IMG/VR virus record: IMGVR_UViG_3300045988_103931 | Coordinates: 10,801 to 74,800 of that record | DNA: 64,000 nt | Strand: one strand, 5' to 3' | Source: a virus | Shown: piece after piece, positions 5,653 to 54,914 of the stretch | Position numbering within the stretch: the first letter of the stretch is position 1 | Layout: each line of letters begins with the position of its first letter | Translations under genes and position numbers: made by a program | The notes under the pieces: model-generated | The model's database searches: none | What the model saw: the letters and a program-made list of their open reading frames with translations, nothing else | What the model was told of the DNA's origin: nothing

Positions 5653-5792
5653 ATATGAGTTATACTTATAACATCACAGAGATGTGAAATATTTAAAGAA
5701 AAGAGGTAAAACCTTTCTCTTTGCTTTTAGCGCAGGTGTTTTATTATATTTTATAAGAACAGTCCGCTCATAACAAAAAATCGGCAAAACAA

Positions 5793-5827
5793 AAAATCCG
5801 TAACGAGCAATACGGATTTTTTTGTTT
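5793..5827. terminator. bidirectional hairpin terminator
   Basis: AAAATCCGTA-acgagcaa-TACGGATTTT flanked by an A-run and a T-run. Confidence 0.65.
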
Positions 5828-5837
5828 TCAATATTAA

Positions 5838-5880
5838 TTTACTTTGTGTTCATATTGAGTTCATAGTGGTGTGGTATCAT
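5838..5880 (+). promoter_or_regulatory. variant promoter V1
   Basis: TTTACTTTGTGTTCATATTGAGTTCATA...TGgTATCAT. Paralogous to 6009-6051 and 57299-57341. Confidence 0.5.
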
Positions 5881-5886
5881 ATATGT

Positions 5887-6007
5887 ACAGAGTGATGTTC
5901 CGTTTAAAAATGTCGTAGTTTTTAAAAAAACATTTTAATCTGTCCTTTCTTTCCTATTTCCCCTTGTTTGAAAAACCCACGTCCGCAGCGTGGGTTTTTC
6001 TTATTTT
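5887..6007 (+). ncRNA. candidate short transcript 1 (promoter V1 to terminator)
   Basis: About 115 nt between the -10 at 5875-5880 and terminator AAAAACCCACG-tccgcag-CGTGGGTTTTTC (5971-6003). No plausible ORF or SD. Confidence 0.3.
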
Positions 6008-6008
6008 A

Positions 6009-6051
6009 TTTACTTTGCGTTCATATCAAGTTCATATATGCATGGTATCAT
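6009..6051 (+). promoter_or_regulatory. variant promoter V2
   Basis: TTTACTTTGCGTTCATATCAAGTTCATATA..TGgTATCAT. Confidence 0.5.
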
Positions 6052-6057
6052 ATATAC

Positions 6058-6206: not shown

Positions 6207-6276
6207 GTGAACGATGATTTACAGATTGTTCACAAAATACTGTGGAATACATACCGCGGGAGAGGTATGATATAAT
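6207..6276 (+). promoter_or_regulatory. conserved promoter/operator cassette, copy A
   Basis: GTGAACGAT-GATTTACA-GATTGTTCAC inverted repeat, GGAAT, ATACC-N8-GGTAT, TATAAT. Conserved CACaAGGAA..ACAAAC leader up to ATG 6322. Confidence 0.6.
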
Positions 6277-6558: not shown

Positions 6559-6579
6559 ATTTGAGAATGACGCAGACGC

Positions 6580-6648
6580 AGAGTGACCGCCGAAAGGCGG
6601 GTAATGCGAGTACCGAAAACGGTAGCGGTCACAACTCCGCAAGAAAGG
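6580..6648 (+). promoter_or_regulatory. conserved structured intergenic RNA element, copy S1
   Basis: AGAGTGA-CCGCC-gaaa-GGCGG-GTAATGCG..TACCG-aaaa-CGGTA-GCGG-tcacaact-CCGC-aAGAAAGG. Homologous to 15828-15916 and 31589-31658. Confidence 0.55.
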
Positions 6649-6978: not shown

Positions 6979-7299
6979 ATGAAAACACGCATTATCGAAA
7001 ATATTTCAATAGCATTGTATCTTTCTTTTATAGTCTTGTGTGGAACGGCTGCATACTGGTGGGAGAACCTCACGAGCGCGGAAACATTAATAGGGTGGTG
7101 TATTTGCCTTGCCGTGCTTTTTGCCGCTGTGAGCGGTTGGAGAGCGTTTGTGAGACATGGTCTTGAAGTCATAGAATGGAGAGCAACACATAGAGCAATC
7201 CAGTATGACGCAAGAGGAAGTAGACAGGATGAAAACCACCTTGGTTACGTTTCGTCAGAATCAATACGAGAGATCAGCAAGAGAGGAAGAAATGAATAG
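6979..7299 (+). CDS. small membrane protein
   Basis: Preceded by the hairpin-SD element (6944-6970). Two TM helices (ISIALYLSFIVLCGTAAYWW, LIGWCICLAVLFAAVSGW). Confidence 0.6.
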   Translation: MKTRIIENISIALYLSFIVLCGTAAYWWENLTSAETLIGWCICLAVLFAAVSGWRAFVRHGLEVIEWRATHRAIQYDARGSRQDENHLGYVSSESIREISKRGRNE

Positions 7300-7657
7300 C
7301 TCAATATGGAAAGGAAAAGAAATAAGTGATTCACTTATTTTGAGAACAACGGAACGTTCCGCGCTAATTGCAATGCCACGTTATAGTGAGTATAGCGGAT
7401 ATACTTTTTGGCATCCTCTAAAATTAGTTCGGCGCGAATATGGCATTGTGTCTCTCAGATATACGGATGATTTTCAATTCCGTTTGCAGAAACGTGAGAA
7501 AACAAGAAAAGGGCAATGGGAACTTACGGACGAAGTTACACTAACGGCAGAAGAAATTGAGGATATTCTATCGGAAGAAGAACCACTGATATACACGCCG
7601 AAACCGTTAGAACCAGAACACGCAACAGTTGATGAAAGTTTGGTGGATGATGAGTAA
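7292..7657 (+). CDS. hypothetical protein upstream of SNF2 ATPase
   Basis: ATG 7292 with GAGAGGAAG SD overlaps the upstream stop (ATGAATAG). Earlier in-frame ATGs at 7205 and 7229 would overlap the previous gene by 70-95 nt. Confidence 0.55.
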   Translation: MNSSIWKGKEISDSLILRTTERSALIAMPRYSEYSGYTFWHPLKLVRREYGIVSLRYTDDFQFRLQKREKTRKGQWELTDEVTLTAEEIEDILSEEEPLIYTPKPLEPEHATVDESLVDDE

Positions 7658-8891
7658 TACAAAAACACAAAATCAAGCAATAGAAAAATTAGGACGATTG
7701 AAAGTTGGTGCGCTATTTATGGAGATGGGAACAGGGAAAACGAAAACCGCCCTTGATCTTATCGCGTCCAAACAAAACAAGATAGATTATACGCTTTGGA
7801 TATGCCCTTGCTCATTAAAAACGGAAATCGAATCCGAACGGCAAAAGTGGCATCCAGAATTAGAACTTGACGTTGTAGGCTGTGAGAGTATCGGCAGCAG
7901 TAACAGAATTTATCTTGAACTCATGAAAAAAGTAGAGGGAAAGCGAACATTTATCGTTGTAGATGAAAGTCTTAAAATCAAGAATCGTCACGCAAAAAGA
8001 ACGATGAGGATAACAAAGTTAGGAGAAGAAGCAAAGTATAAATTGATTCTCAACGGAACTCCTATATCGAAAAGTTATTGCGATTTGTGGACACAAATGG
8101 AATTTTTAAGTCCGAAAATACTCTCGATGTCATACAATCAATTCTACAATACATACTGCGAATATTACACGCGCGGAAAATACAAAGGAAGAATAAAGAG
8201 GTTTGTAAATATACCACACCTTATAGATAAGATATCTCCGTATGTATTTGAAGCTGCACTTGATATAAACACTCAGAAAATTTACCATACACGTTGTTAC
8301 TCAACTCCGATGGACAAATACGAAGAATACAAAGAAGAAATATTCGAACAATATTATGATAATAAAGAGGATGACTTAAATTTTAATGCGTTCTCAATGA
8401 AACTCCAAAAATATTATGGCGAACATTCCGACAGAACGGAATGCATAAATAACCTAATAGAAGAAATAGGCGATCAGGTGATTGTCTTTGTTAGATTTAT
8501 AACGAGCATTCCCGAAGGAGCGCGCAAAATCACAGGAGCTGAAAAACAGTGTGAACGCAAGAATATATTGGATTCATTCAAACGAAAAGAATTTAATGTG
8601 TTGTACATTACTTACGGTTGCGGGTCTTTTGGGCTTAACTTACAGTTTTGCAAGAATATGATATTTGCGGAACACACATGGGACTACGCTGTGAGGGAAC
8701 AAGCAGAAGCAAGAATATATAGAATGGGGCAAGGTGAGGAAGTCAATTATTACAACATGATATGTGATGGCGTGGGACTTGAGGAAATGATATTCGATTG
8801 TGTATCAAAGAAAAGCAATATGCTTGATACGGTGAAAAAAGAGATACAGAAGCACAACGGTAGTACAAAAGATTTTATCAAAACCCTATAA
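7647..8891 (+). CDS. SNF2-family ATPase/helicase
   Basis: MGTGKTKTAL (motif I), VVDESLKIKN (II), LILNGTPISKSYCDLW (III), GLNLQ....WDYAVREQAEARIYRMGQ (V/VI). Start is ATG 7647 or 7650, overlapping the upstream stop. Confidence 0.85.
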   Translation: MMSNTKTQNQAIEKLGRLKVGALFMEMGTGKTKTALDLIASKQNKIDYTLWICPCSLKTEIESERQKWHPELELDVVGCESIGSSNRIYLELMKKVEGKRTFIVVDESLKIKNRHAKRTMRITKLGEEAKYKLILNGTPISKSYCDLWTQMEFLSPKILSMSYNQFYNTYCEYYTRGKYKGRIKRFVNIPHLIDKISPYVFEAALDINTQKIYHTRCYSTPMDKYEEYKEEIFEQYYDNKEDDLNFNAFSMKLQKYYGEHSDRTECINNLIEEIGDQVIVFVRFITSIPEGARKITGAEKQCERKNILDSFKRKEFNVLYITYGCGSFGLNLQFCKNMIFAEHTWDYAVREQAEARIYRMGQGEEVNYYNMICDGVGLEEMIFDCVSKKSNMLDTVKKEIQKHNGSTKDFIKTL

Positions 8892-8893
8892 AT

Positions 8894-8959
8894 ATGAACA
8901 ACGATTTACAAATTGTTTATAAAATAATGCAGAATTAAGTGCCGCTTGTGTGGTATAAT
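8894..8959 (+). promoter_or_regulatory. conserved promoter/operator cassette, copy B
   Basis: ATGAACAAC-GATTTACA-AATTGTTTAT, GCAGAAT, GTGCCGC-ttgt-GTGGTATAAT. Confidence 0.6.
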
Positions 8960-9013
8960 ATATACAGAACAAAAGAAAAGCCTACGGGCAAAGCGAGAAA
9001 GAGAGAAAATAAA

Positions 9014-9487
9014 ATGGCAAGAGCGGTAGCAAAGTGTAAATGCGCGACGTGTGGCAAAGAGTTTGAAGTTATCAAGCGTGATATGCGCAACAGTGCAGCG
9101 GCAAGAGACTTTGAAGAATGGGCGGCTAAAAACTGTGATGAATGCTCGGAATGCTATAAAGCGAGAATTGAAACAGAGAAAGCTAAGAAATTCAACGAGA
9201 TTGACGCAGAAGTCAATTTTCCCACACTGACAGCAGTATCTGATAAGCAGTTGGCGTTTGCCAACAAGAGACGTACCGAATATGTTATAGGGCATACAGA
9301 AACAATCAAAGCAATGAGTGAGTTTCTGAAAACACTTGATAGCCGTAAACAAGAGTTGGAACGGATGTGTGCCGAACACGGGACAACATTTGAAGTGGAA
9401 TATAAAAGAACTATCGAACTATATAAGAAAGAATATACAATCCTGACAGAGACAAGCGCAGGAAAGCTCCTTGATGTTATCGCGTAA
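9014..9487 (+). CDS. Zn-ribbon protein, unknown function (first gene of the triad operon)
   Basis: ATG 9014 with GAGAGAAAAT leader, downstream of the cassette-B -10 (the listed start 8939 lies inside the promoter). CKCATCG...CDECSEC cysteine pairs. Confidence 0.6.
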   Translation: MARAVAKCKCATCGKEFEVIKRDMRNSAAARDFEEWAAKNCDECSECYKARIETEKAKKFNEIDAEVNFPTLTAVSDKQLAFANKRRTEYVIGHTETIKAMSEFLKTLDSRKQELERMCAEHGTTFEVEYKRTIELYKKEYTILTETSAGKLLDVIA

Positions 9488-9546
9488 ATAAAACAATCTA
9501 CTTGCAAAGAACTGCGCTAACGGTTTGACGGGCAGAAAGGTTGACG

Positions 9547-10407
9547 GTGTTTTATATAGGAGATTGGGATAAGCAGAAAATCATTTCCCACTACATCGAA
9601 AACAATGATGTAAAAAAAGTCTTGGTGATATACAGCAAGCAACGGAATGAATATGAAACGGGCATAGAAACCCGATATATAGAATTACATCTTGCTAAAG
9701 CACATGAGACGCACTACGAGTTATTACAGTACATAAACAGATACACGCTAATTGTTATGGATGATTTGTTAGTATCACAGCAAAGATACATGAACGAATA
9801 TAACTGTGTTGCTAACTTTGTCAATCAAACCCCGCACAGACTTGTATTTAACTATCTCCCGTTTATTGAGCAAAAAGACGATTTCATGATTCTGCTTGAC
9901 TTTTACAACAGAGTGAAATACAAGGGCGAAAGATTTGATTATGAGCTTTTCAAAGACTTCAAATACTTCATCAAGCCTGTGCATATTAAAGTCAATTTTC
10001 ATGAAGTGGAGGTAATGAATGAAGATGTAAGAAATTACAATCAGCAAAGGGATGAATTGTTCGCCGAAATCGGTCTTGCAAATCCGCAGATAATCCCTAA
10101 TAGATTATCCGCAATGTGTGGAGATGTAAAGTATAAAACCGCTCCATTCGATAAAATGATTGCGAGAAATCGGCGATATAAGAATTTAACCACATTCAAG
10201 GATTCTGCGGTTAATCCGATTCTGGAATTTCCCGTTAAAAGACAAGACTTTGTTGAGTGGATTTCAAGAACGAAACAGACGGAGATTGATGTATTAACAA
10301 GCCAGTTGAGCATGGATGAATGGTATAAACAGGATTATCTGAACTGGATAGAAAGGCTTGAAGAATTTTATGATAAGGCAAACATTTATCGGAATAAACG
10401 TAGTTGA
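9547..10407 (+). CDS. orphan protein X1 (first gene of triad 1)
   Basis: GTG 9547, 6 nt after GAAAGG. Paralogous to 12046-12765 (YIGDWDKQKI / YIGEYDKTKI; HRLVFNYLP..DDFMILLDF / HRLIFNYFP..EDFMILYDM). No motif I recognise. Confidence 0.6.
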   Translation: MFYIGDWDKQKIISHYIENNDVKKVLVIYSKQRNEYETGIETRYIELHLAKAHETHYELLQYINRYTLIVMDDLLVSQQRYMNEYNCVANFVNQTPHRLVFNYLPFIEQKDDFMILLDFYNRVKYKGERFDYELFKDFKYFIKPVHIKVNFHEVEVMNEDVRNYNQQRDELFAEIGLANPQIIPNRLSAMCGDVKYKTAPFDKMIARNRRYKNLTTFKDSAVNPILEFPVKRQDFVEWISRTKQTEIDVLTSQLSMDEWYKQDYLNWIERLEEFYDKANIYRNKRS

Positions 10408-11509
10408 AGCAACAAAGAAAAGAATCGAGTGGATTTTTGATAACTTTGAACACATAGTCGTAAGCATTAGTGGCGGGAAAGATAGCACGGTTCTTGCGTA
10501 CATGACATTGCAAGAAGCGCACAAGAGAAACCGAAAGATAGGCATTTTCTTCCTCGATGAAGAAGTGGTCTATCAAAGCACGGTAGATCAGGTGCGGTAC
10601 TTGATGGAACTTTATCCAGAAAACACGGTGAAGATGTGGTATCAATTGGAGTTTAATCTCACAAATGCCACAAGCCTTGATGAAACACAGTTTAAAGTAT
10701 GGGATAAAGACAAGCAAGATATTTGGATGAGACCGAAAGAACCGGACAGCATTACATATCCAACATGGGACTTGAGCAAAGAAACAATCCGCAACAAAAA
10801 GAAAGGTTTTGGGTTTTTCGACGCTATGGATAACTTTGTAGCCACATACACAAATACGGCATATCTAATCGGATTAAGAGCAGCCGAAAGTTTGAACAGG
10901 TGGAGAGCGGTTACAAAGTACGCAGGAATCCCAAACGTCTATTGGAGTACATACAGAAACAACGGCAATTATAACCTATATCCGCTGTACGATTGGAACT
11001 TTCAAGACATTTGGAAATATCTTTACGAAAACAAAATAAGATACTCCAAAATATACGATTATCAGTATAAAAAAGGACTTGGTATGAAAGACATGAGAGT
11101 GTCGAGTTTGATACACGAAAAGTCATTTCATTCACTTGTCGAACTTCCGGAGTTTGAGCCGGAAACATACGATAAGCTAATAATCAGAACACAGGGGGTG
11201 CAGGTCGGAAATATCTATGGCAAAGACGATTTAATGCTCAGATGTAGGAAATTGCCTAAAAATTTCAAAGATTGGATGGAATACAGAGATTTTCTGTTAT
11301 CGACTGTAAAGGAAGACGATATAAAAGCGATATTTGAAAAGCGTTTCTCGAAACAGCTTAACAACAACTACGTCGCGCGTCAGCAGTGCAAACAGCTAAT
11401 ACTGAATGACTATGAAAACAATCTTGGAATAACGAACGGCGAGGACAAACGAGAAAAAGAACTGAAATACTGGAAAGGAGTTTTATATGGTGAAAGTTAT
11501 ACAGAGTGA
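10370..11509 (+). CDS. PAPS-reductase-family PP-loop enzyme, IbrA-like (triad 1)
   Basis: VSISGGKDSTV PP-loop, IGLRAAESLNRWR, long C-terminal extension (ARQQCKQLILNDYENN). Start uncertain (ATG 10370 or TTG 10358) and overlaps X1. Confidence 0.7.
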   Translation: MIRQTFIGINVVEATKKRIEWIFDNFEHIVVSISGGKDSTVLAYMTLQEAHKRNRKIGIFFLDEEVVYQSTVDQVRYLMELYPENTVKMWYQLEFNLTNATSLDETQFKVWDKDKQDIWMRPKEPDSITYPTWDLSKETIRNKKKGFGFFDAMDNFVATYTNTAYLIGLRAAESLNRWRAVTKYAGIPNVYWSTYRNNGNYNLYPLYDWNFQDIWKYLYENKIRYSKIYDYQYKKGLGMKDMRVSSLIHEKSFHSLVELPEFEPETYDKLIIRTQGVQVGNIYGKDDLMLRCRKLPKNFKDWMEYRDFLLSTVKEDDIKAIFEKRFSKQLNNNYVARQQCKQLILNDYENNLGITNGEDKREKELKYWKGVLYGESYTE

Positions 11510-12044
11510 AAAAGGAGAAATTAAACTACCATGTTTCGATGTGGTGTTGGTTGACATTGATAAGGTTGTGGCGAATGACTACAACCCCAACCATGTCAGC
11601 GTAAAAAATATGCAGTTACTTGAAGAAAGCATTATAAGCAACGGCTTTTGTTTCCCTGTGGTAACCATACATGATGAAAAGAAAGACGAGTACATTATTA
11701 TAGACGGCTTTCACAGATACACGATATTCAAGGACTATCTAAAGGCAAAGCAGCTTCCTGTTGTTGTACTCGACCACGATTTGAGCAAACGTATGATTGC
11801 AACGGTTCAGTTTAACAGAGCAAGAGGAGTTCATCATGTGGAGCTTATGGGGGATCTTGTGAAAGCGTTGGCGGGAGAGGGAATAACAGACGAACAAATA
11901 GCTGTAAGCCTTGGAATGGAAATGGAGGAAGTGTACAGGCTGAAGCAAATCACGGGCGTTGCAGAGCTGTTTAAAAATCAGTTATACAGTCCTGCATGGG
12001 AAATGAAAGACATGGACAAGAACGTGTACTATCAGGGAGATTGA
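11487..12044 (+). CDS. ParB/Srx-fold protein, IbrB-like (triad 1)
   Basis: AAAGGAG SD. ANDYNPNHV...YIIIDGFHRY...QFNRARG, typical ParB N-terminal domain. Overlaps the upstream gene by 23 nt. Confidence 0.7.
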   Translation: MVKVIQSEKGEIKLPCFDVVLVDIDKVVANDYNPNHVSVKNMQLLEESIISNGFCFPVVTIHDEKKDEYIIIDGFHRYTIFKDYLKAKQLPVVVLDHDLSKRMIATVQFNRARGVHHVELMGDLVKALAGEGITDEQIAVSLGMEMEEVYRLKQITGVAELFKNQLYSPAWEMKDMDKNVYYQGD

Positions 12045-12045
12045 T

Positions 12046-12765
12046 ATGAAAAAAATATACATAGGAGAATACGACAAAACAAAAATTGTCAATGAATATA
12101 TCTCCGAAAACAAAATTGATAAGGTATATATTATCGGAGACGATATATCAATTGACTTTGAGAACAAGGAAAACATAAAATTTTCCGATACCATAATGTA
12201 CAAATATTTCTACAGGCTATTGCAGGAAATCAATAAGGATTCGTTAATCGTACTTAATGAGTGCTTAAAAAAGCAGAACAGATACGATTTAACATATAAC
12301 TGTATCAGACGGTATATGTTACAGACAGACCACCGCTTAATCTTCAACTATTTCCCCATCGTCAAAGAACAAGAAGATTTTATGATCTTGTACGATATGC
12401 TTCAAAACAATCCGTTCTTGAAAGAACCCTATAAATATATCACTGAATTTGAAAATGTTGAAGTTAGCAAGGTTGTATTTGATGTCAACAAAACCGACGT
12501 TGTTTTGCCAGATGAGTGTGAAGCAGAGTATGAGCGTGAAAAAGAAAACCTCATCGGCAAGGTGAATAAAGACCCCGATATAATTCCGAGAGGGTTGTTA
12601 AGATTCAGCGAAAAGAAGAAACCAAAGAACTATGACAGTTTGGCGAAAATTAAGCCAGTGATGAACGTGGCAGTAAGTCAGTTAAAGGTTGATACGTATT
12701 ATTACAACGAATTACTAAACTTTAGAAAGGAATTGACCGATGTCTTACAAAAAATACACGGATAA
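12046..12765 (+). CDS. orphan protein X2 (first gene of triad 2)
   Basis: AGGGAGA SD. Paralogue of X1. Confidence 0.6.
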   Translation: MKKIYIGEYDKTKIVNEYISENKIDKVYIIGDDISIDFENKENIKFSDTIMYKYFYRLLQEINKDSLIVLNECLKKQNRYDLTYNCIRRYMLQTDHRLIFNYFPIVKEQEDFMILYDMLQNNPFLKEPYKYITEFENVEVSKVVFDVNKTDVVLPDECEAEYEREKENLIGKVNKDPDIIPRGLLRFSEKKKPKNYDSLAKIKPVMNVAVSQLKVDTYYYNELLNFRKELTDVLQKIHG

Positions 12766-13855
12766 AACCGTGTTAGAAGCAACGAAAGAGAGAATCAGCT
12801 ACATTTTCGATGAGTTTGAAAACATCATTGTTTCTATCAGCGGGGGGAAAGACAGCGAAGTGTTGTGTTATCTTGCACTTCAAGAAGCAAGGAAAAGAGG
12901 CAGAAAGATAGGCATATTCTTTTTGGATGAAGAAGTTGTTTATAAATCCACCATAGAAATGGTGGAGTACCTCATGAGTATGTACCCCGAAAACACAAAC
13001 AGATTTTGGTTGCAAATTCCTTTTAATCTCACAAACTCAACAAGTTTCGCTGACGGGCAGGTGAATTGTTGGGAACAGGCAAAAAAACCTGTATGGATGC
13101 ACAAGAGAAGTGAGAAGAACATACTCAGAAAAACATGGTCGCATGAGACGCATATCGCAGACAAAAACAAAGGTTTTGGCTTCTACGATGTAATGTACAA
13201 CTTTGAATATTCATTTGAAAACACAGCTTTTCTTGTCGGATTAAGAGCGGACGAAAGTTTGAACCGATACAGAACAATGGTAAAGCGCAAAGGCTACAAG
13301 GACATTTACTGGAGTACAAAAAGAGCAGGAACAAATTATTCGTTTTATCCTCTTTATGACTGGGGATTCAATGATGTATGGAAGTTCATCGGAGAAAACA
13401 ATCTGAAATATCATAAGTTTTATGATTTTGCCTACAAAAAAGGAAAGCACATCAATGAGATCAGAGTGTCGAGCTTGACGCACGAAAAAAGTTTCAAGTC
13501 GATTCAAGACTTGCCCGAATTTGAGTTTGATACATACGAAAAACTATTGAAGCGTATAAAAGGCATTTCGTTTGCGCAAGAAACCGCAAAAGACAGGAAA
13601 ATGTTTAAGGTGCAGAAGCTCCCGCAGAACTATAAGTCGTGGAGAGAGTACAGAGATTTTCTACTTGCAACATACCCAGACGAAAGCAAGAAACCTATTT
13701 TTGAAAAACGATTTGCCAAGCATCTTGACAATGAATTTGTTGCAAGACAGCAGTGCAAACAGCTTGTTCTTAACGATTACGAAAATAACTTCCCGGTAAA
13801 AAACACAGAAGACCCGATTATGGAAAGAATCAATTATTGGAGGAAAGTGTTATGA
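12740..13855 (+). CDS. PAPS-reductase-family PP-loop enzyme, IbrA-like (triad 2)
   Basis: VSISGGKDSEV, VGLRADESLNRYR, ARQQCKQLVLNDYENN. Roughly half the residues are identical to 10370-11509 by eye. Confidence 0.7.
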   Translation: MSYKKYTDKTVLEATKERISYIFDEFENIIVSISGGKDSEVLCYLALQEARKRGRKIGIFFLDEEVVYKSTIEMVEYLMSMYPENTNRFWLQIPFNLTNSTSFADGQVNCWEQAKKPVWMHKRSEKNILRKTWSHETHIADKNKGFGFYDVMYNFEYSFENTAFLVGLRADESLNRYRTMVKRKGYKDIYWSTKRAGTNYSFYPLYDWGFNDVWKFIGENNLKYHKFYDFAYKKGKHINEIRVSSLTHEKSFKSIQDLPEFEFDTYEKLLKRIKGISFAQETAKDRKMFKVQKLPQNYKSWREYRDFLLATYPDESKKPIFEKRFAKHLDNEFVARQQCKQLVLNDYENNFPVKNTEDPIMERINYWRKVL

Positions 13856-14385
13856 AGATAGATATTCCGTGCCTTAACATCAAACTTGTTGACAGAGATA
13901 TGTTACAGGCGAATAATTACAACCCGAACAATGTGCCAAAGGATAAGATGGAATTGCTCAAGCAGTCGATTATCGACAATGGTTTTTGCTTTCCTATTGT
14001 AACGATTTGGAGCGAGGAAGATGAGAAGTATATCATCATTGATGGATTCCATAGATATACAATGTGTATGCCGGAGTGGTTGGACATAAAACAAGTGCCT
14101 GTCGTTGTGTTGAAACACGATTTAAGTCAGCGAATGGCAGCAACGATTCAGTTCAACAAGGCAAGGGGAGTTCATGCCGTCGACGGTGACGCAGAAATTG
14201 TTAGAAGTCTAATCGAACAGGGATTGAGCGAGGAAGAAATAAGCAAGCACCTTGGTATCGACATGGAAACCGTACTGAGATATAAGCAACTCACAGGAAT
14301 TGTTGAACTGTTCAAGAACGTTGAATATAGCAAGAGTTGGGAAGTCGGAGAGTTCGACGGAGAGGATGAAAAGGAGGATAGATAA
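13852..14385 (+). CDS. ParB/Srx-fold protein, IbrB-like (triad 2)
   Basis: GGAGGAAAG SD. ATGA overlap with the upstream stop. ANNYNPNNV...YIIIDGFHRY...QFNKARG. Confidence 0.7.
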   Translation: MKIDIPCLNIKLVDRDMLQANNYNPNNVPKDKMELLKQSIIDNGFCFPIVTIWSEEDEKYIIIDGFHRYTMCMPEWLDIKQVPVVVLKHDLSQRMAATIQFNKARGVHAVDGDAEIVRSLIEQGLSEEEISKHLGIDMETVLRYKQLTGIVELFKNVEYSKSWEVGEFDGEDEKEDR

Positions 14386-15017
14386 TGAGCAAATGGGAAT
14401 ACGGCGGCGTATATAAGAATTACGATATGGATGGAGAAATCAATATCGGCGGCGGTATCTTGAAAGTGCATAATATTTTCGATCCGCTCCCTGATTTCAT
14501 GAAAAAAGCGGATTGCATTTTCTGTGACCCGCCTTGCTCACAAGGAAACATAAACAGCTTTTACACAAAAGCCGATAGAACAGATTATCAGACGAGCTAT
14601 GACCCGTTTGAAAATCGTTTCTTTGAGTGTATAGATGAGATAAAGCCTAACACTTTGTTTGTTGAAGTGTTCGCACAAAATGCAGCGAATTTCGCGGACA
14701 GATGCAATGATAGATATGCAAATATCCATGTCTACGAAACTACTTATTATCACAAAAAAGATTGCAAGTGTTTTATCATAGCTTGTTCAAACGTCATCGA
14801 CATACATAATCTGCCGTTTGAGGACATGGACGAAGAGGACGTTATAGCGTGGATAGGAAAGAATATTAATTATGAGTGTATTGGTGATTTATGTATGGGC
14901 AGAGGACTTGTAGGATGGCACTCATATATCAACGGAAAGCCTTTTGTCGGAACGGAAATAAACAAAAAACGGCTTGCTGTGCTTATTGATAAGATAACAA
15001 AACATCCGAAAAATTGA
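14385..15017 (+). CDS. methyltransferase-like protein with DPPC motif (permuted, beta-class order)
   Basis: ATAATG coupling to ParB-2. CIFCDPPCS where amino-MTases carry (D/N/S)PP(Y/F/W). C-terminal GDLCMGRGLVG...FVGTEIN resembles the SAM-binding FxGxG motif followed by G.E motif. Confidence 0.5.
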   Translation: MSKWEYGGVYKNYDMDGEINIGGGILKVHNIFDPLPDFMKKADCIFCDPPCSQGNINSFYTKADRTDYQTSYDPFENRFFECIDEIKPNTLFVEVFAQNAANFADRCNDRYANIHVYETTYYHKKDCKCFIIACSNVIDIHNLPFEDMDEEDVIAWIGKNINYECIGDLCMGRGLVGWHSYINGKPFVGTEINKKRLAVLIDKITKHPKN

Positions 15018-15107: not shown

Positions 15108-15338
15108 ATGACGTTAAAAGAAAAAAGGATTGAATCAGGATATACACAAAGTGAACTATCAGAAAAAGCAGGAATGAGCCTTAGAACATTACAGCACTTT
15201 GAAAGAAATTATAGACTGCCAGACAAAGCGCAACTTGAAACGCTCTGCAAACTTGCAATCGTGCTTAATTGTCCGATTGACGATTTAATTGTGAACGACG
15301 ATCTGAGAGAGCTATACCGAAAAGCGAAAACACTATAA
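15108..15338 (+). CDS. XRE-family HTH transcriptional regulator
   Basis: GYTQSELSEKAGMSLRTLQHFERN is a classic HTH_3. 76 aa. Confidence 0.8.
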   Translation: MTLKEKRIESGYTQSELSEKAGMSLRTLQHFERNYRLPDKAQLETLCKLAIVLNCPIDDLIVNDDLRELYRKAKTL

Positions 15339-15378: not shown

Positions 15379-15412
15379 TGTGAGGTGAAATTTCAGAAAA
15401 TTCTCTCTAATT

Positions 15413-15477
15413 ATGAACAGTGATTTACATTTTGTTTACAAAATAATACAGAATTAATACCGCTAAAGTGGTAAAAT
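15413..15477 (+). promoter_or_regulatory. conserved promoter/operator cassette, copy C
   Basis: ATGAACAGT-GATTTACA-TTTTGTTTA, ACAGAAT, ATACCGCTAAAGTGGTAAAAT. Nearly identical to copy G over about 44 nt. Confidence 0.6.
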
Positions 15478-15532
15478 ATAATCACAAGGAAGAACAAAAC
15501 ACAAACACAAAACAGGAAGAGAGAAAGAAAAA

Positions 15533-15820: not shown

Positions 15821-15827
15821 TAATTGT

Positions 15828-15916
15828 AGAGTGGCGGCGGCAACGCCGTTAATGCAGTCTAACGCAGATTCAACGCATTAAAACAGTGTTAGAGCGGTCA
15901 CAACTCCGCAGAAAGG
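15828..15916 (+). promoter_or_regulatory. conserved structured intergenic RNA element, copy S2
   Basis: AGAGTG-GCGG-cggcaa-CGCC-GTTAATGC...GCATTAA...GCGG-tcacaact-CCGC-AGAAAGG. Confidence 0.55.
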
Positions 15917-16871: not shown

Positions 16872-17264
16872 GTGAAAAGAGTAAGTAAAATCATGATTGC
16901 GGCGGCATTAATTCTCTCAATGATGGGATGTACGCAAGCTGACATAGTATCAACAAACGTATCAAGAAATGCGGATAACTTCAATGTGTGCCGCAGAATA
17001 ACGGTTATCAATAGCCGCACAGATACGGTTATCTACGAGCTTGAAGGAGTGTTCTCACTGAGTAATGGCTATAATAACGAGCTTGAAGTTATTTGTCAGA
17101 CTGGCGAGAACGAATACAAAAAGCACTTCATTTATCTTACCGATACAGTGTTGTATGTCGTGGAAGATATGAGCGGTGCTGACGTATCTCCATATCATTA
17201 CGAAGTCACATTCTATCCGCAGATGGTTGGTGGTGTTGACGTAGATGTAAAGTGGGAGAATTAA
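16872..17264 (+). CDS. lipoprotein (possible superinfection-exclusion factor)
   Basis: GTG start after ACGGGCAGAAAGG. Signal peptide MKRVSKIMIAAALILSMMGC with a lipobox-like Cys. Confidence 0.6.
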   Translation: MKRVSKIMIAAALILSMMGCTQADIVSTNVSRNADNFNVCRRITVINSRTDTVIYELEGVFSLSNGYNNELEVICQTGENEYKKHFIYLTDTVLYVVEDMSGADVSPYHYEVTFYPQMVGGVDVDVKWEN

Positions 17265-18005
17265 ATGAAATACATATACAAACCGAAAGGCAAGGCAAAA
17301 GAGTACGGAGATTATGCAATTAACATTTACACCGGATGTCCTCACAGGTGCTATTATTGCTTTGCTCCAAGTGTTTTGCGTAAAGACAAAGAAAAGTTTC
17401 ACACTTGCGTTGAACCGCGAGAAAACATTGTAGAGGGCGTAAAAAGACAGGTGGAGCGCGAGAACATTACAGGAAAGTTAATACACCTATGTTTCATTTG
17501 TGATCCGTACCCAAAAGGATATGACAGCACACCAACAAGAGAGATAATCAAAATTCTTAAAGGTGCGGGAAATCATGTGCAGATTCTCACAAAGAATGGA
17601 TTGGACGCTGCACGTGACTTTGATTTGCTTGACGGTGATGATTGGTTCGGAGTGACTTATGCAGGATATGACGAATATGTGCTTGACAGAACATATATCC
17701 CGATTGAAGAACCGGGCGCGGGAAGTCCGCATGATAGGCTTCTTGCTCTTGCGGTAGCACACAATAGAGGAATCAAAACATGGGTATCCGCCGAACCAAT
17801 TATTAACGCTGCCGATGTACTTCAAGTCATGGAATTTGCAGATTATGTTGACCGTTGGAAAGTCGGAAAGATGAATTATCACGAATCTAATATTGACTGG
17901 GCGGCATTCGGCAGACTTGCAGAAGCAACGCTTAATTCGTTACACAAAGAATACTACATAAAAGAAAGTTTAAGAAAGGAAATGGAAAATGGCAACAAAG
18001 ACTGA
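17265..18005 (+). CDS. radical SAM protein (SplB/COG1533-like)
   Basis: TAAATG junction with the lipoprotein gene. IYTGCPHRCYYCFAP CxxxCxxC cluster motif near the N-terminus. About 246 aa. Confidence 0.7.
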   Translation: MKYIYKPKGKAKEYGDYAINIYTGCPHRCYYCFAPSVLRKDKEKFHTCVEPRENIVEGVKRQVERENITGKLIHLCFICDPYPKGYDSTPTREIIKILKGAGNHVQILTKNGLDAARDFDLLDGDDWFGVTYAGYDEYVLDRTYIPIEEPGAGSPHDRLLALAVAHNRGIKTWVSAEPIINAADVLQVMEFADYVDRWKVGKMNYHESNIDWAAFGRLAEATLNSLHKEYYIKESLRKEMENGNKD

Positions 18006-18639
18006 ACAGGTACTTGAAATTAGACTGATTGAGCTTGAAACAGTAACGCTCAAAATTGTAGGAGACACACCGCTTATCATGCACGCATGGAGTGAAAAGG
18101 CAAAGCGTGAAATGCTTGAAAAGCAGATGAAAGCAACAAAGACAAAGAGCCGTGATGCAAAGAATCCTGTAGAGGACTTCATTCGTTCTATGTATTGGCT
18201 GACACCAATGCCAACGGAAATGACAGAGGACGGATTCAATAAAGCTATCGTAGCAGGAGCAAGATTCGGTTTCCCTGTGACAGCATTCAAACAAGCTGCA
18301 ATCTCCGCTTCATATCGACTTGGATGGAGCAAAGACAAAATGTCTCTTAGAGGTGTATTCTTCATTGATGGAGACGAAAATCAGATGCTCGAAATCAAAA
18401 GTGACCCGCCGATTATGCGGGAAGATATGGTAAAGGTTGGTATGGGAACGGCAGATATTCGCTATCGTGGAGAGTTCCGTAATTGGAGCACGGATATGAA
18501 AATCACGTACAACAAAAACGGTCAGTATTCTTTGGAACAGATAATTAACATTATCAATGCGGGTGGTTTTTGCTGCGGCGTAGGCGAGTGGAGACCGGAA
18601 CGAGATGGACAGAATGGCACATTCCACGTAGCGACCTGA
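17989..18639 (+). CDS. hypothetical protein translationally coupled to the radical SAM gene
   Basis: Overlaps the rSAM gene by 17 nt. GGAAATGGAAAATGG SD region. C-terminal Gly-rich GGFCCGVGEWRPERDGQNGTF. Confidence 0.6.
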   Translation: MATKTEQVLEIRLIELETVTLKIVGDTPLIMHAWSEKAKREMLEKQMKATKTKSRDAKNPVEDFIRSMYWLTPMPTEMTEDGFNKAIVAGARFGFPVTAFKQAAISASYRLGWSKDKMSLRGVFFIDGDENQMLEIKSDPPIMREDMVKVGMGTADIRYRGEFRNWSTDMKITYNKNGQYSLEQIINIINAGGFCCGVGEWRPERDGQNGTFHVAT

Positions 18640-31585: not shown

Positions 31586-31588
31586 AGC

Positions 31589-31658
31589 AGAGTGGCGGCG
31601 GCAACGCCGTTAATGCACACAACGAAAGTTGTACGGTCACAAGTCCGAAATTGGAGGG
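31589..31658 (+). promoter_or_regulatory. conserved structured intergenic RNA element, copy S3
   Basis: AGAGTG-GCGG-cggcaa-CGCC-GTTAATGCAC-ACAAC-gaaa-GTTGT-ACGG-tcacaagt-CCG..GGAGGG. Confidence 0.55.
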
Positions 31659-54263: not shown

Positions 54264-54347
54264 ATAACTCGACCTGAGCAAGTCGATAAACTACTCCATA
54301 TTTACTTTCCTTTCTTGACGGAACGGTGAAATTAAGACGTTCCGTTT

Positions 54348-54418
54348 AGGGCGTTAGAATAATGGCAATTCACGTGGCTTTGACCCACGTCAAACAAGTT
54401 CGAATCTTGTACGCCCTG
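54348..54418 (+). tRNA. tRNA-Gln (anticodon UUG)
   Basis: Hand-folded cloverleaf. Acceptor AGGGCGT/ACGCCCT, D GAAT/ATTC, anticodon stem CGTGG/CCACG with loop CTTTGAC, T arm ACAAG-TTCGAAT-CTTGT. Confidence 0.8.
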
Positions 54419-54423
54419 TTCAT

Positions 54424-54499
54424 GCTGACGTAGCGCAATTGGTAGCGCACATGACTTTTAATCATGGAGTTGTGGGTTCAAATCCCATCGTCAGTACCA
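54424..54499 (+). tRNA. tRNA-Lys (anticodon UUU), CCA encoded
   Basis: Acceptor GCTGACG/CGTCAGT, D GCGC/GCGC, anticodon stem CATGA/TCATG with loop CTTTTAA, T arm GTGGG-TTCAAAT-CCCAT, then ACCA. Confidence 0.8.
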
Positions 54500-54603
54500 A
54501 ATCCCCGTTTCCGGAGCGGGCACGTGAGTACAGATTAGGTATTCCGACAGAGTACGGAGAGAGCGTGATTCCAATGTCAATCATGCAGAAAGCTCTGTCA
54601 CAC

Positions 54604-54675
54604 GGGATATTAGCTCAGTTGGCAGAGCACATGGCTGTTAACCATGTAGCAGAGGTTCGATTCCTTTATATCCCG
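54604..54675 (+). tRNA. tRNA-Asn (anticodon GUU)
   Basis: Acceptor GGGATAT/ATATCCC, D GCTC-AGTTGGCA-GAGC, anticodon stem CATGG/CCATG with loop CTGTTAA, T arm AGAGG-TTCGATT-CCTTT. Confidence 0.8.
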
Positions 54676-54708
54676 TTGGACTTTTGTCCAGAATATTCCA
54701 GAAAACTC

Positions 54709-54737
54709 TTGACAAGTGAAAGTTATTGTGGTATAAT
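54709..54737 (+). promoter_or_regulatory. consensus sigma-A promoter
   Basis: TTGACA-17 nt-TATAAT with TGg extended -10. Between tRNA-Asn and tRNA-Trp. Confidence 0.7.
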
Positions 54738-54789
54738 GTGTTAGAATGGATAATTATTGAAATTATTACATCTATTCATCGTGACAAAC

Positions 54790-54861
54790 AAGGGCATAGT
54801 TTAACGTAAAACATCGGTCTCCAAAATCGAAAGATGGTGGGTTCAAATCCCTCTGCCTTTG
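54790..54861 (+). tRNA. tRNA-Trp (anticodon CCA), atypical
   Basis: Acceptor AAGGGCA/TGCCTTT (one G.U), short D arm GTTT-AACGTA-AAAC, anticodon stem TCGGT/ATCGA with loop CTCCAAA, T arm GTGGG-TTCAAAT-CCCTC (one U.U mismatch). Confidence 0.55.
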
Positions 54862-54914
54862 TTACGATGATATAAATAATAGCTCGTCTGCCATGAGCAG
54901 AAGGAGTTCCTAAA

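Follow-up and report, generated by a model that had tools for sequence, protein, structure and literature searches.

The window analysed here is a 64,000-nt stretch of viral DNA, positions 10,801–74,800 of the IMG/VR record IMGVR_UViG_3300045988_103931, and it holds most of the genome of a temperate SPP1-like siphovirus, a temperate gut phage. It carries a + strand operon in which a set of three genes, A, B and C, occurs twice in succession (units 1 and 2), headed by a gene for a Zn-ribbon protein, directly preceded by a gene for a small SNF2-family ATPase and followed by a single gene for a minimal DNA-methyltransferase-like protein (MT). An initial annotation had described this layout as a tandem triad of an orphan protein, an IbrA-like PP-loop enzyme and an IbrB-like ParB protein. 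The list of open reading frames (ORFs) and their translations placed all ten genes, their quoted motifs and the two colinear triads where that annotation had put them, and SGGKDS, GLRA(A/D)ESLNR, ARQQCKQL(I/V)LNDYENN, IIIDGFHRY, the A-protein blocks and FCDPPC were all found in the translations. The features of the region, in window numbering as throughout, are the following (E, expectation value; HTH, helix-turn-helix; aa, amino acids).

6216–6239, + strand: promoter-like cassette copy, an exact match to GATTTACARATTGTTYAYAAAATA, at the head of the upstream unit (three small ORFs, g150 and SNF2)
7205–7657, + strand: g150, 150 aa, function not assigned (phrog_27058, E 1.5e-16)
7647–8891, + strand: small SNF2-family ATPase, 414 aa (PF00176, PF00271, phrog_62)
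8903–8958, + strand: promoter-like cassette with extended −10 element TGnTATAAT at the head of the operon (core 8903–8926; TGTGGTATAAT at 8948–8958)
9014–9487, + strand: Zn-ribbon protein, 157 aa, a recurring accessory (CxCxxC…CxxCxxC in the translation)
9547–10407, + strand: A1, putative SNF2-like pseudo-ATPase of unit 1, 286 aa (AlphaFold model, Foldseek, hhalign)
10358–11509, + strand: B1, IbrA/YbdN-family PP-loop ATP pyrophosphatase of unit 1 (PF01507 and PF11922, phrog_2302)
11487–12044, + strand: C1, IbrB/YbdM-family protein of unit 1 with ParB N domain and HTH (phrog_2159)
12046–12765, + strand: A2, shorter putative SNF2-like pseudo-ATPase of unit 2, 239 aa (homology to A1)
12740–13855, + strand: B2, IbrA/YbdN-family PP-loop enzyme of unit 2 (PF01507 and PF11922)
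13837–14385, + strand: C2, IbrB/YbdM-family protein of unit 2 with ParB N domain and HTH (ParB_N, phrog_2159)
14385–15017, + strand: MT, minimal beta-class N6/N4 DNA-methyltransferase-like protein, 210 aa, single shared copy (family profile)
15108–15338, + strand: Xre-type HTH protein, last gene before the cassette copy at 15422 (phrog_8 and phrog_3, E 1e-10)

The 24-nt promoter-like cassette GATTTACARATTGTTYAYAAAATA was found by sequence match in eight intergenic copies on the + strand of the window (6216, 8903, 15422, 24613, 29599, 31290, 36992 and 52168), where none is expected by chance; the promoter cassette proposed upstream of the Zn-ribbon gene is the copy at 8903–8926. At the two copies inspected, 6216 and 8903, a −10 element of the TGnTATAAT type lies ~20–25 nt after the cassette. 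Copies head units in both the early and the structural regions, which suggests a site for a common regulator or a phage-specific promoter architecture, and an 86-nt repeat, D2, links the copy at 6216 with that at 15409–15494. The copies divide the region into two transcription units, one running from 6216 to the SNF2 gene and the other from 8903 to the Xre-type HTH gene. Within the operon the genes overlap and are tightly coupled; the 1–50 nt overlaps reported for the junctions hold for most of them, but one base lies between C1 and A2. MT lies at 14385–15017 as described, but it does not close the operon: since the next cassette copy is found only at 15422, the Xre-type HTH gene is counted as the last gene, and in the related contig L002 such a gene (68% identity) likewise follows MT.

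The PP-loop enzymes B1 and B2 both matched PF01507 followed by PF11922 (DUF3440) above the gathering scores of 22.5 and 25 bits, with E 5e-14 (53.1 bits) and E 1e-11 (45.0 bits) for B1 and E 1e-16 (61.7 bits) and E 6.5e-8 (33.0 bits) for B2; B1 also matched phrog_2302 (E 1e-87). This domain architecture, the intact SGGKDS motif and the adjoining small ParB_N gene that overlaps the 3′ end of each B gene place both proteins in the IbrA/YbdN family, in agreement with the initial annotation, and their 56% identity bears out its estimate that they share about half their residues. An exhaustive search collected 1,577 cluster representatives of IbrA-like proteins, 243 of them at E ≤ 1e-30. Conservation was assessed on 44 diverse members, including IbrA of an E. 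coli phage and the proteins of Flavobacterium phage FCL-2, phage Taranis and S. thermophilus phages. Residues S38, G40, K41 and D42 of SGGKDS, together with D67, E69, G172, E177, R181, D212, D217, Y233 and R247, were invariant, as was the GxRxxESxxR motif, so that ATP pyrophosphatase or adenylyl-transfer chemistry appears to be retained. Cysteine, on the other hand, occupied no alignment column in more than 15 of the 44 proteins, and some members carry only a single cysteine. The AlphaFold (AF2) model of B1 (predicted local distance difference test, pLDDT, 92.9) matched the folds of CysH, APS reductase, FMN adenylyltransferase/FAD synthase (FMNAT), CysD, TilS, NcsA, TtuA and LarE, the match being confined to the first ~240 residues; no solved structure corresponds to the helical DUF3440 part, and a PDB sequence search with B1 gave no match.

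The absence of a conserved cysteine in the B family disfavours both CysH-type sulfate reduction and DndC-type phosphorothioation. CysH requires a C-terminal catalytic cysteine; no such cysteine (ECGLH-type motif) is conserved in the family, and the NCBIfam CysH/PAPS-reductase models scored only 30–38 bits against cut-offs of 154–254. DndC holds a [4Fe-4S] cluster on three cysteines and has in addition a cysteine dyad (PMC10853773), and the corresponding model TIGR03183 scored ~22 bits against a cut-off of 290. Neither a cysteine desulfurase nor a DndD or DndE partner was found among the operon proteins and the downstream neighbours scanned, as the initial annotation had also noted; of the parallel it drew with phosphorothioation, the pairing of a PP-loop protein with a ParB protein stands, but the parallel is weakened by the missing cysteines and the lack of a nearby desulfurase. 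Phosphorothioation is thus disfavoured as the product, there being neither Fe–S nor relay cysteines. The chemistry left once CysH and DndC are excluded, and shared across the fold, would be transfer of the ATP alpha-phosphate group (adenylylation) to an oxygen of the substrate.

The C proteins were confirmed as ParB/IbrB-like. C2 reached 29.1 bits for ParB_N against a gathering score of 26.3, C1 fell just under that score (E 1e-4), and both matched phrog_2159 (E 1.5e-57 for C1 and 2e-52 for C2). PDB sequence matches of C1 were the ParB/Srx-fold serine kinase SerK, Noc and ParB. Across 17 sequences the three boxes of the ParB N domain are kept (I–III: ANxYNPN, DG(F/Y)HR and N(R/K)ARGxH); the proteins, 182–185 aa long, end ~25 residues past the HTH and thus have no ParB C-terminal dimerisation domain. 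C1 and C2 are 54% identical, again close to the half noted by eye, with 56% in the N domain versus 44% in the HTH region. No ParA-like gene was found in the operon by Pfam and PHROG scans, and parS sites were not searched.

The A proteins, which had been taken for motif-free orphans, turned out to have an SWI2/SNF2-like fold according to AF2 modelling, Foldseek and hhalign. The A1 model, built from an alignment of 24 A-family proteins (pLDDT 92.8), was compared by Foldseek with the PDB and BFVD, and the matches listed were almost all SWI2/SNF2 or related superfamily 2 (SF2) ATPase cores; in the PDB they included INO80, a Sulfolobus Rad54-like protein, ISWI, CHD1 and RapA, with E down to 1e-5. 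The query-normalised TM-score reached 0.60 in the PDB and, for SNF2/SF2 helicases of BFVD, 0.66, and the predicted structure shows two RecA-like lobes with SNF2-specific inserts. Supportively, hhalign aligned the A profile with a profile of the cassette-linked small SNF2 proteins at a probability of 82% (E 1e-5, 170 columns), a significance reached only with the SNF2 profile and not with the single SNF2 sequences of Lactobacillus phage phiAQ113 and FCL-2 (E 0.086 and 0.19). In this register 'TLIVMDDLL' of A falls on motif II and 'HRLVFNYLPF' on motif III. The catalytic motifs are nevertheless lost. In the global alignment, GDWDKQ stands opposite the motor's GTGKT (Walker A), the second glycine being replaced by a nearly invariant aspartate; motif II reads D(D/N/E), or NE in A2; and the alignment does not extend to motifs V and VI with their arginine fingers. 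Neither A1 nor A2 had a Pfam match. A2 aligns with the A family, lacks part of lobe 2 and has 342 homologues, many of them ~240 aa long; it is 33% identical to A1 over 187 aa (E 5e-27), so that the first genes of the triads are, as claimed, much more diverged than B and C. The modelled fold and the profile match identify A as a degenerate SNF2 paralogue, homologous to the small SNF2 ATPases linked with the cassette; lacking the P-loop and motifs V and VI, it is predicted to bind DNA or partner proteins without hydrolysing ATP.

The SNF2 ATPase directly upstream of the operon, by contrast with A, has its catalytic motifs intact. It matched PF00176 (E 8e-15), PF00271 (E 2.5e-9) and phrog_62 (E 6e-81), as the initial annotation had proposed from its reading of the gene, and in the alignment of cassette-linked SNF2 proteins Walker A (G28, G30 and K31), motif II (D106 and E107) and motif VI (Q352, R356, R359, G361 and Q362) are invariant, so a competent motor is predicted. 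This motor seems exchangeable, because the SNF2 protein of contig L003 is only 35% identical to that of the window while the adjacent B and C genes are 77–91% identical. The gene g150 is kept upstream of SNF2 in L001, L002, L003 and L005. The Zn-ribbon protein, a weak Zn_ribbon_8 match in Pfam with a homologue in L002, resembles the N-terminus of 406-aa proteins encoded upstream of SNF2 in L012 and L019 (E 1.6e-4), which are 38% identical to one another.

The identification of the last of the recurrent proteins, MT, as a permuted, beta-class methylase-like protein is supported by family-profile matches and by the order of its motifs, IV then I. The family profile matched M1.HpyAVI/DpnA (5hek, a weak match at E 2e-3), MboIIA and CcrM in the PDB, and 15 of 20 MT homologues matched PF01555 at E ≤ 1 (best 1.3e-5), the window MT alone giving no Pfam match. 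F46, D48, P49 and P50, the D168, C170, G172 and G174 of DxCMGxGxxG, and FVGTE are invariant in the family, and there is no target-recognition domain.

The duplicated triad and its cap, for which the initial annotation knew no characterised counterpart, recur in other genomes. Three related contigs (L002, L003 and L005) repeat the whole double layout, with orthologues 61–95% identical, so it is no assembly artefact, as had been argued before. Nor is the triad with its cap confined to this phage, single-copy A-B-C-MT cassettes being widespread in phages of several phyla: single sets in the same order, usually after a small SNF2 gene, were found in L004, L011 (a Clostridiales metagenome-assembled genome, MAG), L012, L024 and L025, and further ones in L018 (an Acidobacteria prophage) and L019 (a Methylococcaceae phage, in which an exonuclease gene is inserted). 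In large T4-like contigs, recognised by clamp-loader, family B polymerase and RegA genes, the order is A-B-[homing HNH]-C-x-MT and the cassette lies within the replication cluster. Altogether the order A-B-C-MT is the same in more than ten independent loci, from Bacillota phages, T4-like lytic phages, the Methylococcaceae phage, the Acidobacteria prophage, the Clostridiales MAG and a bacterial chromosome. A scan of the GTDB representative genomes with the A profile gave a single locus, in the Clostridiales MAG. Judged from gene order, the general unit is small SNF2–A–B–C–mini-methylase, with the Zn-ribbon protein as an accessory at its head. A small SNF2 gene also lies directly upstream of IbrA/IbrB pairs that have no A, in FCL-2 and phiAQ113. 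Two proteins encoded beside IbrA/IbrB-type pairs, the 'methyltransferase' of Bacillus phage PBC5 and the 298-aa 'helicase' of mycobacteriophage Gaia, were compared with MT, A and SNF2 of the window and found to have no detectable relationship to them; the association with a methylase or helicase in these two phages rests on annotation only.

Several of the colinear cassettes are interrupted by other genes. A homing-endonuclease gene of the NUMOD4/HNH_3 type lies between B and C at 12029–12670 of the T4-like contigs L013–L015, an HNH gene follows MT at 10325–10690 of L024, and an RNase_T-like exonuclease gene separates B and C at 10863–11405 of L019.

Simple neighbour-joining trees of A, B and C were congruent: the T4-like and other single cassettes fall together with unit 1, and unit 2, B2 included, forms its own deeper clade. 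The cassettes of L016, L018 and L019 are unit-2-like, with 64–75% identity to C2 versus 49–53% to C1, and the unit-2 lineage is also found by itself, both in other phages and in a bacterial chromosome. Of the old, maintained duplication that had been proposed for the two triads, the maintenance stands, but the triads are not a recent duplication in place, because the three trees put the units in separate lineages. This points to two old cassette lineages, each evolving as a cognate set, which the lineage of the window's phage stacked while keeping one SNF2 and one MT; the congruence of the A, B and C trees argues for cognate complexes. In comparisons with the L002 and L003 orthologues, synonymous divergence (dS) was saturated and nonsynonymous divergence (dN) was 0.04–0.27 for the six A, B and C genes, which indicates purifying selection on all of them and likewise speaks against an artefact of assembly.

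The phage itself sets the context of the operon. Along the window the genes run from tail fibre and endolysin through the cassette region and many small genes to a serine integrase on the minus strand, the primase, RecE-like, DnaD and DnaC genes, and the terminase, portal and capsid genes, so the operon occupies the accessory zone that separates lysis from integration, as do the IbrA/IbrB pairs of phiAQ113 and of S. thermophilus phage 94. Contigs with identical proteins reach about 75–78 kb. The closest cultured relatives of the portal protein are all Bacillota phages, at ≤37% identity, and megablast found nothing that matched the 7.9-kb region among 50,697 phage records, so that no near relative was found among cultured phages.

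Several known systems share parts of this layout. The core is that of IbrA/IbrB, from E. coli prophage-like elements, and of YbdN/YbdM of K-12, in which overlapping genes likewise encode a PAPS_reduct plus DUF3440 enzyme and, after it, a small ParB_N protein; B1 and IbrA of phage PhiR5_2 share 30% identity (E 3e-37). The E. coli pairs, however, have no adjoining SNF2, A or mini-methylase gene and only a regulatory phenotype or annotation, whereas the window pair is embedded in a 4–6 gene cassette and present twice. DndBCDE, SspABCD and BrxP of BREX type 4 also combine a PAPS-reductase-family PP-loop ATPase, a ParB-superfamily protein (DndB) and an ATP-driven DNA handler, with DNA modification as the product. 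The B proteins gave only weak matches to PADLOC DndC models (E 1e-7 to 1e-9), and the systems differ in that DndC carries Fe–S and dyad cysteines, of which none is conserved in the IbrA-like family, and in that a DndA-type desulfurase, DndD and DndE were not found in the genes scanned. Dpd islands resemble the operon in having the ParB-like ATPase DpdB and the SNF2-type DpdE beside a DNA-modifying enzyme, and the window SNF2 gave partial DpdE matches; here, in contrast, the enzyme is a PP-loop protein, and neither a DpdA/tRNA-guanine transglycosylase (TGT) homologue nor a preQ0 gene was found among the ten operon proteins with Pfam, NCBIfam and PADLOC, nor the combination of DpdA, DpdB and DpdC that defines such islands. 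In mobile elements, the polyvalent proteins of phages and plasmids and the ParB–methylase fusions of the DarB-like anti-restriction type reportedly bring together modules of three kinds, ParB, DNA methylase and SNF2 helicase, and C1 and C2 matched the ParB part of phrog_498 'DNA methyltransferase' (E 1e-10 to 4e-13). Here the modules are separate small proteins joined by an extra PP-loop enzyme and an inactivated SNF2 paralogue, and a virion-delivery signal was not evident. Finally, MT (210 aa) approaches the small methyltransferases of the M1.HpyAVI/DpnA type, which lack a target-recognition domain (232–240 aa), in size and in the order of motifs IV and I, but their motif IV is DPPY as opposed to DPP(C/W/G) in the MT family, and the match is the weak one cited above.

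A PADLOC scan of the operon gave only weak partial matches, to DndC, to helicase parts of ZorD and DpdE, to AbiEi (A, E 3e-4) and to mad2 (MT, E 2e-3), and called no system. That no characterised system has this layout was thus borne out within PADLOC and the open literature (subscription-only papers lay outside the scope), and within the same literature no functional study of phage IbrA/IbrB-type systems was found. Phage pairs of this type are mentioned there as sulfur auxiliary metabolic genes (AMGs) or as virulence-related, and they are common, with 223 matching records among cultured phages.

We tentatively favour, at somewhat less than an even chance, the reading that the operon encodes a sequence-targeted, ATP-dependent DNA-modification machine with two specificities. 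The preference rests on the DNA-acting families of SNF2, A, C and MT, four of the five proteins that recur, on the linkage with replication and packaging, on the co-evolution of the genes within each unit and on the occurrence of each unit type alone elsewhere. The position of the cassette in the replication cluster of T4-like phages, and of IbrA/IbrB-type pairs next to terminase genes in FCL-2, Gadjet and Taranis, would fit an action on phage DNA before packaging. As to the initial alternative of two sequence contexts or two chemical steps, contexts fit better, since elsewhere either cassette type is found by itself with an MT of its own; two sequential chemical steps are disfavoured on the same ground. 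The greater divergence of C1 and C2 in the HTH region than in the N domain also agrees with two specificities.

In such a machine the catalytically competent small SNF2 translocase, the Zn-ribbon accessory and MT would be shared, and the two A-B-C sets would be specific to their units. C would bind a nucleoside triphosphate and recognise DNA sites, and A would serve as a non-catalytic DNA-binding adaptor, linking its unit with DNA and possibly also with the live SNF2 motor. B would then use ATP to adenylylate, and so activate, an oxygen of the DNA target on a base carbonyl or a phosphate; the group so activated might stay, or it might be displaced by a nucleophile from a source other than an enzyme cysteine. 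The mini-methylase would employ the same targeting complex, and the two stacked units would amount to two sequence specificities. By marking its own replicating DNA in this way, the phage may escape host restriction or defence. A more specific version, that the A-B-C-MT cassette installs a previously unknown, ATP-requiring but sulfur-free covalent mark on base or backbone, by adenylylation-activated substitution or as a stable adenylylation, with the IbrB-type subunit reading sequence context, the dead SNF2 paralogue as DNA adaptor and two independent marks per phage, is possible though rather doubtful.

Several observations pull the other way. E. coli IbrAB is needed for the expression of prophage eib genes, a regulatory and not a protective role and the only known phenotype of the family. 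In E. coli K-12 the ybdNM genes are chromosomal, and a bacterial chromosome carries one A-B-C-MT cassette, flanked by maf and a gene for an RND (resistance–nodulation–division) pump, with no phage genes nearby. A place between lysis genes and integrase is typical of morons expressed in the lysogen. The cassette encodes neither a nucleophile donor nor a tailoring enzyme. Moreover, the fourth residue of motif IV in the MT family is C, W or G (DPPC in the window) where an aromatic residue is typical, and since the window MT also falls under all Pfam thresholds, it may be inactive or act on another substrate.

A regulatory role, in line with the eib phenotype, is the first rival, and we hold it to be rather unlikely. 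IbrB-type proteins would load on phage sites and, with SNF2, remodel nucleoid-protein or RNA-polymerase complexes so as to activate silenced or late genes, the PP-loop enzyme and the methylase supplying an epigenetic or cofactor step. Databases annotate the family as a 'co-activator of prophage gene expression'; C keeps the ParB N domain and HTH; RapA, the bacterial SNF2 protein that recycles RNA polymerase, is among the fold matches of A; an Xre-type HTH gene ends the operon; and the pairs of Taranis and PhiR5_2 sit between a RinA-like activator gene and the terminase genes and after antirepressor genes, respectively. A plain transcription factor, however, needs neither an invariant ATP-pyrophosphatase site nor a methylase-like gene that is always linked, lytic T4-like phages have the cassette in their replication gene cluster, and two parallel units would be odd for one switch. 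Regulation and DNA modification are compatible, as a DNA mark could be the route by which expression is changed. Prophage defence or superinfection exclusion, where the cassette marks lysogen DNA and an effector encoded elsewhere attacks unmarked DNA as in restriction–modification, Dnd, Dpd and BREX, would suit the moron position of an operon with its own promoter cassette, the likeness of SNF2 to the helicase modules of ZorD, DpdE and DrmD, the small island in a bacterial chromosome and the presence of ParB-like and PAPS-reductase-like proteins in Dnd, Dpd and BREX type 4. We nevertheless consider it improbable: no nuclease or other effector was conserved with the cassette in any of the loci examined, the PADLOC matches are weak and partial only, and the cassette is found in strictly lytic-looking T4-like phages, as well as a pair in the lytic FCL-2.

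The substrate might also not be DNA. C could be a ParB/Srx-fold kinase of the SerK/SbnI type, its best NCBIfam and PDB sequence matches for C1 being these serine kinases, and B could adenylylate a phosphate on a small molecule, RNA or protein in the manner of CysD or FMN adenylyltransferase, yielding a nucleotide-linked metabolite or signal, or a modified tRNA; B indeed folds near those two enzymes, which transfer AMP to phosphate or sulfate, and near the tRNA enzymes TilS, NcsA and TtuA. With an HTH and all ParB boxes in C, SNF2-type and DNA-methylase-type proteins as constant partners, and no transporter or metabolic gene conserved nearby, this has in our view only a slim chance. The usual phage annotation, under which B1 and B2 would be sulfate-assimilation AMGs (PAPS reductases), agrees with PF01507 and CysH as top sequence and fold matches and with common usage in the literature, but it is contradicted by the missing C-terminal catalytic cysteine, by CysH model scores far below their cut-offs, by a fold match limited to the N-terminal part and by constant partners (ParB, SNF2 and methylase) among which there are no sulfur-metabolism genes; we reject it as extremely improbable.

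The locus data bear on more than this one phage. The usual label for pairs of the IbrA/IbrB type is either 'PAPS reductase', a sulfur-metabolism function, or co-activator of prophage expression, and this widespread annotation is corrected here: the pair forms the core of a conserved cassette of larger size, which includes an SNF2 motor, a putative dead SNF2 paralogue and a minimal methylase-like protein, and its IbrA-like enzyme is without the cysteines required by any known PAPS-reductase-family or Dnd-type chemistry. The compact 4–6 gene unit is defined and clonable, and its two-specificity version is a natural one for comparing cognate with non-cognate combinations. If DNA is modified, the cassette would represent new chemistry in the conflict between phage and host and possibly a sequence-targeted DNA-marking tool; if the mark is sulfur-free, this would be the first mechanism for the long unexplained IbrAB/YbdNM family, which occurs in E. 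coli and hundreds of phages.

Some further observations concern the surroundings of such pairs and of the operon. In the cluster B Mycobacterium phage Gadjet (L020, 1–4471), the PAPS-reductase-like gp4 and the ParB-like gp5 are encoded at the left end of the genome, gp5 runs into the start of gp6, which codes for the large terminase, gp1 is a second ParB-like gene, and a small terminase gene is not annotated among genes 1–10; the arrangement raises the question of a role of the IbrB-type protein in packaging-site recognition. In the window, ~2 kb downstream of the operon, a radical SAM protein is encoded at 17265–18005 (PF04055, E 1e-9; phrog_13321; no PDB sequence match); its gene overlaps the start of that for a phrog_4652 protein (17989–18639) and is not carried by the single-copy cassettes elsewhere. 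Immediately before it, at 16872–17264, lies the gene for a 130-aa protein with a predicted lipoprotein-like N-terminus that matched Pfam Phage_VG64, the Mycobacterium phage VG64 family, at E 6e-46, a match unexpected for a Bacillota-type phage. Four tRNA genes (Gln-TTG, Lys-TTT, Asn-GTT and Trp-CCA) are clustered at 54347–54862 amid head-morphogenesis genes.

The non-coding stretch that separates the endolysin gene from the operon holds two copies of a 60-nt element (TTTACTTTGYGTTCATAT…GGTATCATATAT), at 5825–5884 and 5996–6055, with 78% identity, each copy directly after a terminator-like hairpin (5791–5822 and 5970–6000). Type-P5 twister ribozymes (Rfam RF02684) were matched at three + strand sites, 6577–6640, 15825–15909 and 31586–31648, with 52.1, 37.8 and 49.9 bits, respectively (gathering score 37.6), and both displayed alignments (6577–6640 and 15825–15909) contain the conserved core GCAGAG / UAAUGC / CGGUCNCAA. 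All three lie within + strand transcription units, one among the small ORFs that precede g150 and SNF2 and another a short way past the unit next to the operon, and their self-cleavage may process the polycistronic mRNAs of the phage.

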